IMG/VR virus record: IMGVR_UViG_3300033075_001021
Reading direction: 5' to 3' (one strand)
Source of the DNA: a virus
Taxonomy: Duplodnaviria; Caudoviricetes
Length of the DNA stretch: 64,000 nucleotides
Positions within the stretch are counted from its first letter, which is position 1, and each line of letters opens with the position of its first letter. Of this stretch, positions 3,798 through 54,299 are shown in pieces. Below the pieces are notes generated by a model, which was given only the letters and a program-made list of their open reading frames with translations, did no database searches and was not told the DNA's origin. Made by a program: the position numbers and the translations under genes.

Positions 3798-6700
3798 TTA
3801 GAAATTCCATTCATTAGTGTCTTCTTTTGGTAAACTATTTATAGTCTCCAACAATGACTTGTAATCAATATTAGGATTTGATGTTGTACCAAAACTAGGA
3901 TTTAGTGTTTCAATTTCATCATCCCATGGTGATTTTTTCTTTGTTAGTGTTGGTGGATTTAATGCCAACCTACTAATCTCAATCTCAAAATCAGCTTTTT
4001 GAATTTCAGGTATGTACCCGTCAATCTCAGGTTCTGGTGCTTCTGGGTCATATTCATCGTCATCATCATCATCATTAGATTTTTTCTCTTTCTCTTTAAT
4101 TCTAACCAATACGCCTAATTCAAATTCTTCAACATTTTTCTTAAGTAGGTCGATATTATTCATATCCTTGAGTTCACGTTTCATTTCGTTTCTAACGCTT
4201 TCCTCGACACTCATAATTTTCTGTTCTGATTTGTAATCCAACCATAACTCATATCTGTTTGTATCAGATACACTGTTCATCTGATACCATTTATCCCTCT
4301 CAATTGCATCTTCTTCGTATTTAAAAATATCGTTAATACTTCCAAGTACAACATCCCATTTTCTTGAAATAAATGAAGTGTAATCATCAGATAAAGTTGC
4401 AAACATAAGAATCTCTTGTGGCGGTGTTAACGAAGATTCAAATATTTGAATTTCTTTTAGTTCAAGTTTTTGAAGTATACGGTCAAACTCTTCAAGCTCA
4501 AACTTAATACCATTCTCACGTTCAATACGTTTTCTTTCATGGTAATCTGCTCTTATCATTTCCCACTCATCAACCTCCATATTATTTGGGACTTTATCAA
4601 CACTATCCCAAAACCTAATTTCTTTATCTTCCATTTTCATTAGGTCTTCGTAATAATCGTCTTGGTCCTCTGGCTTATTTGGTACCCCAGCGACCAACTG
4701 ACATTGTAATTCAGTAAAAATATTTTTATCCGTGAGTTTTTCTAGTTTTGTTTTCTTGTCCTTTTTAATTTCGCGAAGAATTTTATCACGTATATCTAAG
4801 TTAAAACAAACAAGCAATGGACGCACCTTTTTATTAAACGCTTCTAAATATTTGGCAACATTATACTCATCTGTTAATAATTCAGATTCCATACTAGCAA
4901 TCCTTGCATTCAACTCATTAATCTTTTCGGTATCCGATGGGTCACAAGCAGCAATCATTTTTTGTAAACTCTCAATATCTTTTAACGTTTCAAGATTAGT
5001 CTCTACGGTAACGGTATCAAGTAATTTACAATTTAATATTGTTTGTGACTCAAACTTTGGTGCATGACCATTATTGATTTCATATTGCAGTAATTGTTTT
5101 TTTGTCATTTTAGACCTTACAATAGTTTGACAATCACCATCGGTTTTCGACTTACCCGTATTAACGTAATATATGGTGTCACCTAGATTAACATCCAACT
5201 CATTAGCAATTGCCAACTCCATGTGCGCTTGTTTTGGCATTGGATTACCAGCTTTATTCTTTTTCAACGACTTCTTTTTGTAGTCTTGAATGGTTGATTT
5301 AACTTTTGATTTAGACGCAATTTTTACAAGTGGAATATTGTAGTTGTATATTTTATCAACATATTCATGGTAGTAGCTAATAAACTCTTTTCCTTTACCA
5401 TCAAGCAATAAAGCAATTGCTTTATTGATAAAATCCTCAATATATACTGGCATCTTTTTAGACTTGATTGAGTTACCAACCAATTTAAGTTTACCATTTA
5501 GTAGATTAGCGTAGTTTTTCCTTGAGAAGTTAATCGTAGACTCATAGATATCATCTATATCCAATCCCATTCTACCAATCATAAAGTTTTCATTGAATTC
5601 AGCAAGAACGGCATCTAAACCAAAAAGTTCTTTACCAGCATCCTCTTTAGTTTTCCAATGAGAACCTTTAGCAACATATTTTACCGAATTGATACTTTCA
5701 GGGAATTCAAAGTTAAAACCATCGGTATCACCCACAAGCGGATTGAAACCATATTTTTCTTTAAAGTGTCTTACCATTAAACGAAGATACTGACGACCAC
5801 GACAAGTTGTTTCTTCAGCACAATTGGTATCACCCCAATTAAAAATATACGGTGCACCATAAGCACCAAACCAAGAGTTTGCAAGAATCTTAAGAGGTAA
5901 TTGTTTTTTATCATAAAGGCTTGCTAACGCCTTATGTTCTCTAAGTTGTTCTTTTAATTTCTTAAGTTCTTCTTTTGATAATGTGTCCTTAAGGTCGTCT
6001 ATTTTTCTTTGTATTTCCTTAGCCTTTGCTTTTTCTTCACCTGTTAGGAATTTATATTTGTCACGGGTATCAACAATATAAGTTAACAACCCAGCCATCA
6101 CACCGCTAATATCAAGGTCTGGAAATATTTCATGCGTTAATTGATTCTTAGGATAAAGAGCGGCGTAGTCAAACTTAACAACGTTTCTAGAATAACCAAC
6201 GCTAAGCAATCTTGAAAGACCACCAGTAAAATCACGTTTTGTTTCTGTTTCAGGTATAGCCAAATCATTTTCATACGACCATGCAGACATAATTAATTTC
6301 CACTGGCTAGCTGTACCCATGGTAGAACTTCTACTGTAAGAAGTTGGAAGCAGTTTAGATATCAAAAATGCTGCTTGATTGTATATTGTATCAACTTGTT
6401 CTGTTTCCCATAAATCATCCAAAAGATATCTTTGAACAATAAAGTTACCCTTAACCTTTTTATAACCATCATTTAATGGCATCCTATCAGTTATCTTATA
6501 GAAGTCACCATTTTTATCATTGAAAGCGTAATCGGTCTTTTCATCAGCCCAAGTTGAATAAATTTTATCACCTTGAACATATACACGATTTTCTTTAGCA
6601 ACACCAGAGTATTTCGTGATGTATTTTAAGTTCCATTTTTTAATATCGGAATTAATTGCTTGGGCTCTACGTACAGCGTGTGCAATATCGATTACATTAT

Positions 6701-50079: not shown

Positions 50080-50484
50080 ATGAAAAAGTTTTTTAATATA
50101 TTATTATCGGACAGTAACAAAATCTCCACAAAGCGATTTATTGGACTGTTATGTCTTGCTATGTTTATAGCTTATGGTATTGTTGGTTTAATCAAACCAT
50201 TCAACGAATATTTCTGGATATTTTATGTTAGTTTATGCACTATCACTATTTGGATAGCATTTAAATTCATGTCAGCTGAGAAGATTCTTAAATACGATGT
50301 TATTGGTAAACTATCAAAATTTTCACCAATCAAAGATGCTGTATATGATGCTATCGTAACTGAAGATGAAATTGATGATGCTATTCAACCAGATGTTTTA
50401 AAGGGTAAAAATACTGGAGAATTAACCAAAAGAGAAAAGAAATTACTAGGGTTAGGTGACGAACCAGAAAATAAGGGTGAATAA
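50080..50484 (+). CDS. Two-TM membrane protein
   Basis: ISTKRFIGLLCLAMFIAYGIVGLI and FWIFYVSLCTITIWIAF hydrophobic helices; start ATG 50080. Confidence 0.65.
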   Translation: MKKFFNILLSDSNKISTKRFIGLLCLAMFIAYGIVGLIKPFNEYFWIFYVSLCTITIWIAFKFMSAEKILKYDVIGKLSKFSPIKDAVYDAIVTEDEIDDAIQPDVLKGKNTGELTKREKKLLGLGDEPENKGE

Positions 50485-50488
50485 ACAC

Positions 50489-50517
50489 TTGACAAATTAA
50501 AAATGTTTTAGTATAAT
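50489..50517 (+). promoter_or_regulatory. Perfect sigma70-consensus promoter
   Basis: TTGACA(50489-94)-N17-TATAAT(50512-17). Confidence 0.85.
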
Positions 50518-50519
50518 TA

Positions 50520-50533
50520 TATTACGTTAACTC
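50520..50533 (+). repeat. Left arm of a 14-bp perfect inverted repeat (partner 52477-52490)
   Basis: TATTACGTTAACTC versus GAGTTAACGTAATA. Confidence 0.8.
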
Positions 50534-50534
50534 C

Positions 50535-50592
50535 GTATTGGCTTCGACCATGAAATGGTTTAGAGTTGTCACGGCAACAAAGAAGTTAGTAC
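50535..50592 (+). ncRNA. Putative structured 5' leader (three-way junction)
   Basis: P1 GUAUUGGCUUC/GAAGUUAGUAC, P2 GACCAU-GAA-AUGGUU, P3 GUUGU-CACG-GCAAC. Confidence 0.5.
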
Positions 50593-50622
50593 ATAATAAC
50601 AAACAATTAAAAGTTAATTAAA

Positions 50623-51510
50623 ATGAGACAAACAATCACTGGGCCAAGTGCGCCCATGGCTGCGATTTGTATTAACAAATCCAGACTAAAAACTTATCAC
50701 AAAGACAAAACCCCTACTTTCTACTTAGAGAAGGGTCAAGAATTTCAGATTGAATTATTCAATCCTACTTCAGACACAATTCTTGCTAAAATCCAATTAA
50801 ACGGTAATCAAATTTCACAAGGCGGTCTTGTACTTAGACCAGGTGAACGTGTATTCCTTGAACGTTATCTTGACGTGGCCAAAAAATTCAAATTCGACAC
50901 CTACGAAGTAGCTAACACAGCTGAAGTAAGGGAAGCGATTGAAGATAATGGTGACTTTAAGGTAGAATTTTACAGAGAATCAAGACCAGTATATTCATAT
51001 GGTTCTACAATTACTTTAAAAAACGATGTGCCATTTACCTACACTGACAACAATTCTACAGGATATAGAGGAATTAATCACACGTCACTTGGTACAACTG
51101 GAGGAAATCCACTTAATTTAACTGGGCTAAATGCGTCATTAAACGCAACACCAATTAGTTCATACTACAACACTGGTGGCGCAACATGCTATTCTTCAGA
51201 TGTTACGATGGATAGCTTTAATAGCGCATCACTAAGCGAACAAGCCGCACCAACCAAATCTTTAAGGTCTAGAAGTAAAACCATTGAAACTGGACGTGTA
51301 GAAGCTGGTAGCGGTTCAAATCAAAAATTGGAATATGTAAGCAAATCATTTGAATACTGGCCATTCCATACAGTTGAATATAAACTTTTACCTATTTCAC
51401 AAAAGGTAAATACTGTTGCTGACATCAACGTTAAAAGATACTGCACAAATTGTGGTAAAAAATCCGACAAAACAGATAAATTTTGTTCACAGTGTGGTAA
51501 TAAATTATAA
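50623..51510 (+). CDS. Phage protein with C-terminal zinc ribbon
   Basis: CTNCG...KFCSQCG; strong promoter upstream. Confidence 0.8.
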   Translation: MRQTITGPSAPMAAICINKSRLKTYHKDKTPTFYLEKGQEFQIELFNPTSDTILAKIQLNGNQISQGGLVLRPGERVFLERYLDVAKKFKFDTYEVANTAEVREAIEDNGDFKVEFYRESRPVYSYGSTITLKNDVPFTYTDNNSTGYRGINHTSLGTTGGNPLNLTGLNASLNATPISSYYNTGGATCYSSDVTMDSFNSASLSEQAAPTKSLRSRSKTIETGRVEAGSGSNQKLEYVSKSFEYWPFHTVEYKLLPISQKVNTVADINVKRYCTNCGKKSDKTDKFCSQCGNKL

Positions 51511-52402
51511 AGATAAAAAATCTTTCCAACCTAACCAAACCCCTCTTCTTCTAAAATATGTTGAGGGGTTTTTTGGTATTCCAGTTGGTTTATTAAGTTT
51601 AATGTATTCTTTAAATGTTGTTGAATTTAAATTATACTTTGATAATATTTTTTTACATTCGTCATATGAGTAAAATATTTCGTTTTTAACCCTAGTATAT
51701 GTGTTACCTAAAAAATTATCCCATGAAACCCATCCATTATTTTTATATGTTAGTTGAGGATTAACGGGTAGATTATTAACCCTAGCATAAACGTACCAAT
51801 CTCTAATATTGTTAAATTTGTTTTTATGTGCTATCTTTTTTAAGACATTATATGAAATTGTATGTTTATTATTTTTAATGTTTTTTGTATTAAAAAAATC
51901 ACCCCATGAAACCCATCCATTATTTTTAAAAACACTGTCAGGTCTTTTTGGTATATTTAAATGACTATTTAATTTAAAATATTCCCGCCACTTTTTTTCA
52001 CTATCTATTTCTGGTATGTTATTCACTCTCCATTGTCTAACATCATCAAGTGTTAATTTGTACCTTTTACCAGAATGCCCATCCCCACCTTCAGATATAT
52101 TTGTCAGGTTATCAAATTGCCTAATCCAATATTTTTCTCTTTCGGCCCAACTATTTTCATCTGATTCTTCTAAAATTTGTATATTAATGGTACCACCACT
52201 ATTTAAAACTTTTCGAATCCAATTATTTTTATGTGTTATCACACCACGTTTAGCTGCTGATAAATGGTCATTTTTTCTAATTTTTGGTCTATAAGATTTT
52301 CCAACATATCTTATAACACCATCTTCTGCACATAACCCATAAATAAATATTTTATTTGTTTTCATAAAATTCTTTATAATAAATATGTGGTAATTAACAA
52401 AA
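51448..52402. mobile_element. Free-standing homing endonuclease cassette carrying a replacement 3' end for the zinc-ribbon gene
   Basis: New NCG...CG.K stop, then an antisense GIY-YIG ORF with its own late promoter (52379-52386), then the original 3' end; boundaries approximate. Confidence 0.7.
51505..52365 (-). CDS. GIY-YIG endonuclease with three P..Y....W..W..FL repeats
   Basis: IFIYGL......RYVGKS, REKYWI, LTNISEGGDG; repeats PDSVFKNNGWVSWGDFF, PQLTYKNNGWVSWDNFL, PSTYFRRRGVWLGWKDFL; start ATG 52365. Confidence 0.85.
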   Translation of the reverse strand: MKTNKIFIYGLCAEDGVIRYVGKSYRPKIRKNDHLSAAKRGVITHKNNWIRKVLNSGGTINIQILEESDENSWAEREKYWIRQFDNLTNISEGGDGHSGKRYKLTLDDVRQWRVNNIPEIDSEKKWREYFKLNSHLNIPKRPDSVFKNNGWVSWGDFFNTKNIKNNKHTISYNVLKKIAHKNKFNNIRDWYVYARVNNLPVNPQLTYKNNGWVSWDNFLGNTYTRVKNEIFYSYDECKKILSKYNLNSTTFKEYIKLNKPTGIPKNPSTYFRRRGVWLGWKDFLSL

Positions 52403-52465
52403 AACTGTGGTGCCAAGCAAAAGCCAGAATTTAAATTCTGTCCTAGTTGCGGCGCTAAAGCATAA
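52403..52465 (+). pseudogene. Displaced original 3' end of the zinc-ribbon gene
   Basis: Reads NCGAKQKPEFKFCPSCGAKA*, same 20-aa length and Cys spacing as NCGKKSDKTDKFCSQCGNKL*. Confidence 0.85.
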
Positions 52466-52476
52466 ATAATAAACTA

Positions 52477-52490
52477 GAGTTAACGTAATA
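52477..52490 (+). repeat. Right arm of the 14-bp inverted repeat
   Basis: Reverse complement of 50520-50533, immediately before the terminator. Confidence 0.8.
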
Positions 52491-52518
52491 AAAAAAGGTG
52501 GAATCTTCCACCTTTTTT
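52491..52518. terminator. Bidirectional intrinsic terminator
   Basis: AAAAAA-GGTGGAA-TC-TTCCACC-TTTTTT. Confidence 0.85.
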
Positions 52519-52909
52519 ATTTTGGGTATCTTATCATACTATCCATAAATTTAAAATCTTTATTTCGGCCCTTATTTGGCACAAAACCAAACTTTTTATA
52601 AAATGTTAATAACACACTCATTGGTGTTTCTGTGTTTGCTGGTGTCAATGTACATAATAATTTGTACTTATCACATAGTTGAGTAATCTCTGACATTAAA
52701 GCGCCACCTAAACCCCTTCTTCTTTCTGTTTTGTTTGGTATTTTGATTGATGCAATATGAATTGATTTCACATCCCCTCTTAAATAAATCCAACAAATCA
52801 TTCCTTGACTTTCATATTTTCGAATTATAGCGTCAAGCTCATCTTGAATTTGAAACTTCAATCTGTCTTCCTCTTGACCCATTAATTCGAATATATGTCC
52901 AATTTTCAT
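52517..52909 (-). CDS. GNAT-family acetyltransferase
   Basis: RRRGLGGALM acetyl-CoA loop and FYKKFGF. Confidence 0.8.
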   Translation of the reverse strand: MKIGHIFELMGQEEDRLKFQIQDELDAIIRKYESQGMICWIYLRGDVKSIHIASIKIPNKTERRRGLGGALMSEITQLCDKYKLLCTLTPANTETPMSVLLTFYKKFGFVPNKGRNKDFKFMDSMIRYPK

Positions 52910-53443: not shown

Positions 53444-53629
53444 ATGAACAAAATCATTAAAGAAAATGATGAAAAATATTTCATCACTTGTGGTGACTGT
53501 AACACTCATTTTGAATATACTATAACAGATGTTAAACCATTTACTGGATGGGTATTAGGTAAAATATCTGATTATGTTATATGTCCAAAGTGCAATAAAC
53601 AAGTAGACCACATTAAGGGCAAAATTTAG
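53444..53629 (+). CDS. Small zinc-ribbon protein
   Basis: CGDC...CPKC. Confidence 0.65.
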   Translation: MNKIIKENDEKYFITCGDCNTHFEYTITDVKPFTGWVLGKISDYVICPKCNKQVDHIKGKI

Positions 53630-54299
53630 ACCCTTTAGAAAGATTATCTGGCCACCATAGTGGTTGCAGATTATTCAACGCCCAACAAGCTTTAAACTCT
53701 GGGTCATCAGGACTTTCGAATTTAAAGCTTGACATTGGGCGAATATGGTCTACATGCCATTGACCATAATTATCCCATGTCATCCCATCAACAAATTGTT
53801 TTTCCAAGTGCTGCATTAATTCCTCTATTGTATAACCAAGTAATTCAAATGTAGAACGATATTTAGCAACATTAGCTTCTTTAAGACATGTATAAACGGC
53901 TGTTCTTGTTCTAGCTGCTAATCTATATTTTGGGTCCTCAGCACGACGCTTACGTTCGTATTCACGTTTGTATATATTTACATGTTCTTTATTCTTTTTA
54001 CGCCATTCAGTATGTTTTTCACGTAAATACCCCCTATTTTCATTAGCCCATTCTTTATATGATTTACTAATTTCTTTTTTATTTTTACTATAATAACGTT
54101 TATTGGCCTCACTTTTACCACCAATATTACGTCTTCCTGATGTATTAAATATAACGCCATTTTCTCTAAGTGTTCTAATTATAATAGTTTTATGAATACC
54201 CATATGTTTACTTATTGTTGTACAACCCAATAAGTTTTCATTATACATTCTTAAGCATTCATCTATTTGTTCTTTTGTTAATTCGATTTTCTTACTCAT
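53613..54299 (-). CDS. HNH-type homing endonuclease (N-terminal HTH, basic linker)
   Basis: GMTWDNYGQWHVDHIRP...CW.LNNLQPLW..DN.SKG; late motif at 54304-54311. Confidence 0.8.
   Translation of the reverse strand: MSKKIELTKEQIDECLRMYNENLLGCTTISKHMGIHKTIIIRTLRENGVIFNTSGRRNIGGKSEANKRYYSKNKKEISKSYKEWANENRGYLREKHTEWRKKNKEHVNIYKREYERKRRAEDPKYRLAARTRTAVYTCLKEANVAKYRSTFELLGYTIEELMQHLEKQFVDGMTWDNYGQWHVDHIRPMSSFKFESPDDPEFKACWALNNLQPLWWPDNLSKGSKFCP

Follow-up and report, generated by a model that had tools for sequence, protein, structure and literature searches.

Endonuclease genes that bring a new end to the gene they invade are known from fungal mitochondria, where mORF gene hybrids have been described for atp6 of Allomyces macrogynus and for atp6, atp9, cox2 and nad3 of Glomus (PMC3630166, which cites Paquin et al., 1994). 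Here we report an element of comparable build in a phage gene. It is a mobile cassette of 958 nucleotides (nt; positions 51445–52402) near the 3′ end of a protein-coding gene, the target gene (50623–51510, plus strand), on a stretch of 64,000 nt from IMG/VR virus record IMGVR_UViG_3300033075_001021 (Duplodnaviria; Caudoviricetes), which as a whole we call the window. The cassette combines a free-standing GIY-YIG homing endonuclease gene with a foreign substitute for the host gene's ~21 terminal codons on the opposite strand, and we consider it, with a probability of about 0.88, to be an intron-less homing element that replaces the end of the phage gene in which it resides. In the mORFs, as here, a GIY-YIG or LAGLIDADG gene lies near the 3′ end of a gene that has a foreign C-terminus, and the native C-terminus is displaced downstream. 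This likeness to fungal mitochondrial endonucleases had been pointed out in the original prediction for this DNA, made from the sequence alone, and it holds. The native copy is also the one closer to endonuclease-free relatives in both systems (91–98% versus 64–81% for the inserted copy in mORFs, and 92% versus 56% here). The mORF hosts are organelles, whereas ours is a phage; the mORF endonuclease gene lies in phase with the host gene or downstream of it on the same strand, whereas here it is antisense, and the two genes converge with overlapping stop codons. Unlike in the mORFs, about 20 codons encoding a single zinc ribbon are replaced, and many independent cassette lineages use two insertion points in one small module.

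A further comparison is with the WHO elements, which yeasts of the genera Torulaspora and Lachancea carry at the aldolase gene FBA1 (PMC7282813; bioRxiv 10.64898/2026.08.13.744650). There, as at our locus, an endonuclease gene is accompanied by an alternative 3′ part of an important host gene, and each round of homing exchanges the 3′ end while remnants of former ends stay behind. Sensitivity to WHO varies among host alleles, and the target region has diversified in an arms race between element and target. The WHO proteins are intein-like LAGLIDADG proteins with an added zinc finger and belong to the eukaryotic nucleus; half a gene is replaced, and clusters of up to nine elements occur. Compared with these clusters, just a stub of 17–20 nt hints at serial events at our locus.

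In phages, free-standing seg and mob endonucleases of the T4 type are known to home without introns, as described for SegF, SegG, SegB and MobE (PMC2988022; PMC2790892). Like the gene described here, these are free-standing GIY-YIG genes in T4-like phage. Their homing co-converts flanking markers, they are expressed from phage promoters, and host regulatory signals embedded in the endonuclease coding region favour their retention (PMC2988022), which may be compared with the embedded terminator described below. A 2010 review of T4-type phages lists endonuclease genes inserted between genes and three cases in which a gene is split (nrdA, gene 60 and gene 43), including nrdA of Aeh1, which is split by mobE, and does not mention duplication or replacement of a gene end (the stem 'duplicat' has no occurrences in it; PMC2988022). 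Nor did we find a published example of gene-end replacement in a phage, in a literature that mostly left out subscription journals, so that this is not proof of absence. Bonocora and colleagues, in 2011, reportedly viewed mobA and the gene 60 bypass element of T4 as a cassette. In that case and in that of mobE and nrdA, as here, an endonuclease gene travels with extra sequence that keeps the invaded gene working; those hosts make do with two polypeptides or with ribosomal bypassing, whereas here there is one polypeptide with a new end. The present element is thus distinctive in its phage host, its convergent overlapping genes, the very small module that is replaced and the several endonuclease lineages involved.

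The target gene encodes a protein of 295 residues with a conserved N-terminal beta-sandwich, a variable linker, a conserved C-terminal part and a terminal zinc ribbon. The last 22 residues form a complete CxxC...CxxC ribbon (Pfam Zn_Ribbon_1, E 7e-6), and its four Cys and two Gly are invariant among 31 diverse family members. The cassette is inserted between the first and second Cys codons of the ribbon's first knuckle and begins with a substitute end (51445–51510, plus strand) that supplies the two inner codons of this knuckle, 19 more codons and the stop codon. Past the endonuclease gene, at 52403–52465 on the plus strand, lies a second ribbon end of 20 codons and a stop, the orphan. Target gene, antisense GIY-YIG open reading frame (ORF) and second zinc-ribbon end had all been described in the original prediction, and all are indeed present. 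Orphan and current end have equal length and Cys spacing, as had been noted, and have 11 of 20 residues and 35 of 63 bases in common; the orphan does not, however, amount to a complete ribbon, since the first Cys of the first knuckle is missing from it. It is untranslatable: it lacks a start codon, and a stop in its frame precedes it by four codons. A six-frame scan of the window for the pattern of a zinc-ribbon end gave these two places only, and none of 100 shuffles contained it. The current end was said to be AT-richer and the orphan more like the gene body, and the G+C contents agree with this (current end, 0.25; endonuclease gene, 0.28; gene body, 0.37; orphan, 0.43).

Homologues of the target protein were grouped by their ends. 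A-type ends (core KQKPEFKFCPSCG) are those of the orphan and of most of the closest homologues, the B-type end (core KKSDKTDKFCSQCG) is the current end of the window, and the remainder are C-type (e.g. KLGKGHKFC..CG) or D-type; loci and proteins are referred to by L and P numbers. The contigs with B-type proteins P0002 (L001) and P0023 (L002–L004) carry the same 286-codon antisense gene over the target stop, and those reaching far enough (L001–L003) have an A-type orphan beyond it. The contigs with the A-type protein P0009 (L005–L007; 70% protein identity) have no endonuclease gene. In these, the orphan-type end is fused right after the first Cys and is followed by the same 3′ untranslated region (UTR), terminator and GNAT-like gene, which is the arrangement that the original prediction had expected of endonuclease-free loci. 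Of 60 bases compared, the orphan shares 55 with the functional end of L005, an empty allele. It is followed, as had also been noted, by a UTR and an intrinsic terminator (52466–52518, plus strand; from a terminator scan, with a hairpin at 52491–52518, −17.5 kcal/mol, z −4.2), and this native 3′ region matches the DNA past the L005 stop at 84 of 95 bases. The match of orphan and UTR is as good as or better than that of the flanks, which amounts to 100 of 116 bases in the last part of the gene body and 311 of 386 in the GNAT gene. This gene (52517–52909, minus strand), a GNAT-like acetyltransferase gene by weak Pfam GNAT matches, forms the right flank and adjoins the target gene in empty alleles, lying directly past it in L005, L043, L050 and L051.

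The cassette is common to three backgrounds, namely the window, L001 and L002, whose orphans differ from one another. Between the window and L002, the stretch 51443–52366 is 97–100% identical, as against 38–88% in the gene body and 75–85% in the downstream DNA. The B-type end of the window recurs in L001 and L002 with at most one residue changed, and both have the 286-residue endonuclease ORF intact. The orphan peptide of L002 is the functional end of P0021, the sister of L002's own P0023 on the tree of gene bodies (support 100). In L001 a different gene stands to the right of the terminator, and L001 and L002 share ~60–120 bases of left flank that have no counterpart in the window, which looks like a variable co-conversion tract.

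Public sequencing data extend this picture. Eleven studies, of freshwater, river, lake and digester material, contain the stretch or some part of it in a total of 20 runs, 11 of which hold at least half of its sampled words. A riverine run, X8, has contigs of the occupied form and, in addition, one in which 51444 and 52406 are linked by six other bases. The latter skips 51445–52405, is an A-type empty allele of a related phage, and fixes the cassette boundaries; it is also an empty allele of the kind that the original prediction presupposed, from a sample that holds the occupied form as well. In a second run, X10, the cassette lies at 96.6% identity in another gene body, in which the variable linker is replaced. 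The fixed site is thus occupied in the window, L001, L002 and the X10 contig and empty in L005–L007 and the X8 contig; among the 95 loci at which the target gene was recognised (88 from IMG/VR scans), five IMG/VR contigs are occupied. The cassette moves as a unit between diverged phage genomes, and the orphan is native to the window's lineage and was displaced downstream by it. As for the proposal that the cassette brings a recoded terminus, it does carry a replacement terminus, but this is another natural allele class of the same ribbon and not a recoded copy. An assembly chimera was ruled out, since several studies, with assemblies from JGI, ENA, NCBI and Logan, show the same arrangement.

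The endonuclease gene (51505–52365, minus strand; ATG at 52365, stop at 51507–51505) encodes 286 residues and is convergent with the target gene. Its product matches PF01541 with 27.1 bits against a cutoff of 22.6, and the catalytic-type residues Y9, G10, Y20, G22, R30, H34, E77 and N89 are invariant in our endonuclease alignment (A3). The N-terminal nuclease domain is followed by three repeats of ~55 residues that end in a GW.SW.DF-like motif, and relatives of the protein carry INT_rpt repeats (PF14882). The target and endonuclease genes converge on the palindrome TTATAA, such that each ends in Leu-stop and reads the other's codons reverse-complemented. Directly past the new stop of the target gene, and inside the last codons of the endonuclease gene on the opposite strand, lies a hairpin with a U-run (51534–51577, plus strand; −19.7 kcal/mol, z −3.3) that is a candidate terminator for the target mRNA and is kept in L002.

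At the other end of the cassette, 14 nt upstream of the endonuclease ATG, is the gene-start motif ATATTTAT (52379–52386, minus strand). About nine other ORFs of the window have the same motif 5–20 nt before their start (20 matches in total, compared with 12.5 expected), and it recurs at the same place in the endonuclease-start regions of L029, L055, L067, L167 and L170, and with one mismatch in L169. The copy at 52379–52386 is probably the cassette's own promoter. Next to it, at 52386–52402 on the plus strand, lies the stub, a degenerate copy, 17–20 bases long, of the first codons of an A-type orphan. In L002, the stub matches the locus's own orphan at 18 of 22 bases, and in L170 the orphan stands directly after the motif, at the position of the window's stub. 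Judged by its sequence, the stub may be read as the fossil of an earlier, imprecise homing event.

A plausible course of events would be the following. During co-infection, the enzyme would cut the A-type end of empty alleles. The break would be repaired from the occupied genome, with the gene body as the left arm and the orphan and 3′ UTR as the right arm, and the cassette would be copied across in the process. The occupied allele would escape cutting, because its site is split and its new end differs from the old one at 28 of 63 bases. The host gene would stay functional without splicing, because the family-invariant ribbon is replaced and not destroyed; indirect support for a working hybrid gene comes from the stop and terminator past the new end and from L050 and L051, where the B tail class is the sole end. 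With the stop palindrome shared and the terminator embedded, the host's new end would be tied to the endonuclease gene, and a clean loss of the element could be harder for it.

Several observations weigh against this account. The 187 C-terminal residues of the endonuclease gave no match above threshold to a curated DNA-binding family in Pfam. An RNA run, of a set kept as contigs only, yielded one 220-nt contig that lies inside the endonuclease gene and bears on neither expression nor splicing. The tail classes were defined post hoc, after the sequences had been seen. L050 and L051 have a B-like end with neither an endonuclease gene nor an orphan, and this kind of tail can therefore spread by ordinary recombination too. 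The body of the target gene is itself a mosaic, and the trees are therefore approximate.

The strongest rival is that the cassette is a relic whose endonuclease is inactive and which has spread by general homologous recombination between co-infecting phages. Apart from the visible mosaicism of the target gene and its surroundings, there is the tail patch exchanged, in the absence of an endonuclease, between L050 and L043, an A-type locus: the two are ~84–100% identical in the conserved gene parts and ~78–96% downstream and, the linker (58–66%) aside, their identity drops only in a patch of ~95 bases at the tail (68%). Against a relic stand the intact 286-residue ORF in every copy seen and its invariant catalytic-type residues, the 97–100% identity of the cassette where the surrounding gene differs by up to 60%, and the fact that an endonuclease clade reaching down to 59% identity has kept one site. 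We therefore give the relic a small chance. Endonuclease-free ends of another class are also on record, as L103, L108 and L109 have D-type ends with no adjacent endonuclease gene, in parallel to the endonuclease-free B-type ends.

A smaller chance still falls to the reverse polarity, in which the B-type end would be native and the orphan a fragment imported together with the endonuclease from a former host. This would sit well with the B-like end as the sole end in some endonuclease-free genomes, and the original prediction had itself named empty alleles with the current-type end as evidence against its own reading. Such alleles are indeed found in L050 and L051, but they belong to other body lineages. 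Substitute-type ends are scattered in the tree of the ribbon-less protein, with 11 changes needed for 14 B rows, and a single clade of B rows was rejected in an approximately unbiased test of 36 rows (log-likelihood difference 358.7, p 1e-61), a result that also supports the main account. The tail is thus exchangeable, and the B end is not shown to be native to the window's lineage. It is the orphan, moreover, that varies with the host lineage, whereas the B end and the endonuclease gene are nearly invariant. The orphan of L002 equals the tail of the sister of its own gene body, the window's orphan continues into the UTR, terminator and GNAT gene of its lineage at flank-level identity, and the window's gene body falls within the starred clade of 15 A-tail rows of the body tree.

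Least probable of all is an intron, with the insert removed from the RNA and the orphan as the real protein end: a join of 51444 to 52400 does formally give an in-frame CxxC knuckle, but a search of 50300–52700 with E values of up to 5 allowed gave no match to a group I or II intron family. The endonuclease gene, moreover, is antisense, a complete in-frame ribbon end, stop and terminator stand at the opening of the insert, the B-type end functions alone in endonuclease-free genomes, the LAGLIDADG cases described below leave half a knuckle pair only, and excision would not be clean, since the empty allele has six other bases in the cassette's place, all of which makes splicing of the insert unlikely on the evidence of the sequences.

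That an intron-less homing element replaced the end of the gene also agrees with what is found at the same gene end in other phages. Homologues of the endonuclease in L167 and L168 (70% identity; contigs of up to 385 kb), L169 (66%) and L170 (59%) are convergent with the same target end and abut it, and at each of these loci the end is B-like (...CGQKL or ...CGNKL) and the orphan is A-type. A second GIY-YIG clade (L029, L067; 45–52% identical, 338–357 residues, four repeats) comes with a D-type substitute end (KLK..[FY]KYCP.CA) and C-type orphans. Unrelated LAGLIDADG genes (L053, L055, L090; PF14528 above cutoff) lie antisense past the same target gene, in cassettes inserted ~11 codons further on, before the second knuckle; here the second knuckle alone is replaced and the orphans are 9 codons long. 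At least three endonuclease lineages thus use two insertion points in one 20-codon ribbon. The endonuclease of L171 (46% identical) abuts a diverged target, where no orphan was found by the pattern used.

In L053, the LAGLIDADG cassette (3820–4740) brings the whole B-type end together with 21 nt of the 3′ UTR belonging to the same allele, and a new hairpin besides. As a result of this imported piece, a UTR-like repeat flanks the endonuclease gene and the orphan, and recombination between the repeats could delete both and leave the new tail alone; B-type alleles that lack an endonuclease, such as L050, may have arisen in this way. More distant endonucleases (38–40% identical) stand beside ClpP-like protease genes in L009 (2995–3888), where the two genes are convergent, and in L116 (281–1162), where the start of the neighbour is overlapped. 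No displaced end of the ClpP-like gene was visible in L009 or L116, and replacement of gene ends is therefore not established as a habit of the endonuclease family as a whole. A metagenome scan with the endonuclease alignment returned distant relatives only, mostly matches to the N-terminal domain.

A wider proposal would join these observations into one. The 20-codon ribbon would be the site of an arms race like that of WHO, in which at least three lineages (two GIY-YIG clades and one LAGLIDADG) would each cut one tail class and carry another; the tail classes would be resistance alleles that also spread alone, as in L050, and in that case tails would as a consequence be shuffled against gene bodies. 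I-TevI autorepresses at its own promoter, and by analogy the orphan and stub, which lie directly upstream of ATATTTAT, could be kept as a binding site of the enzyme that serves as its autorepression operator. We hold this combined proposal to be tentative and, taken as a whole, rather doubtful.

The source phage is large, T4-like and jumbo. The window encodes major head, portal, DNA polymerase and baseplate-hub-like proteins, relatives of the window phage have Gp23-type capsid genes, and a recorded contig of 303,928 bases also encodes the target protein. Among 50,697 phage genome records there was a single weak match of 176 bases and no cultured relative. For the target protein we found 2411 homologues; in the Atlas, its family consists of hypothetical clusters that are 94–100% viral, and the family is virus-only. 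PHROGs returned nothing for the target protein or the endonuclease, and the predicted target structure (mean predicted local distance difference test score 56.6) had no Foldseek match in the PDB at E 0.001 or better. A SHOCT domain takes the place of the C-terminal zinc ribbon in some structural relatives of this family, and hence the small C-terminal module seems to be open to exchange across the family as a whole.

The middle of the target gene (51000–51270, with its counterparts in L001, L002 and the X10 contig) encodes a hypervariable linker rich in Asn, Thr and Ser. It is exchanged wholesale between lineages, as in X10, where 327 nt replace 285 nt, and along the gene the window, L001 and L002 are mosaics of one another. 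Upstream, a promoter-like site (50489–50517, plus strand; TTGACA, 17 nt, TATAAT; 12 of 12 consensus matches) is followed by a 105-nt leader. The part of the leader at 50544–50603 is 95–100% identical among the window, L001, L002 and L005, compared with 63–90% at the coding start; it has a moderate fold (z −2.3), gave no match in Rfam, and may be a regulatory RNA or a protein-binding site. Lastly, a 228-residue ORF between the GNAT region and the capsid gene (53613–54299, minus strand) has ATATTTAT 5 nt upstream and, by eye, an HNH-like motif near its C-terminus. In Pfam it had a weak ANT match only, and it may be a second homing endonuclease.

End replacement of this kind would be a third way for endonuclease genes to live within phage genes, beside splicing (introns and inteins) and gene splitting. 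It also matters for annotation, in that short, unannotated 'ghost' gene ends near nuclease genes can serve as markers of recent homing, and hybrid ends would be horizontally acquired. The locus amounts to a natural and very compact 'cleave and rescue' design, with a shared stop palindrome, a host terminator within the nuclease gene and a probable promoter of its own, and it offers natural target alleles, putatively sensitive or resistant, that could be used for testing specificity. Nuclease genes have been reported to tend toward the boundaries of genetic exchange (PMC10448857). Here, the end of a conserved, virus-only gene in the structural region would be a hotspot of nuclease-driven exchange, which bears on the mosaicism of phage genomes.

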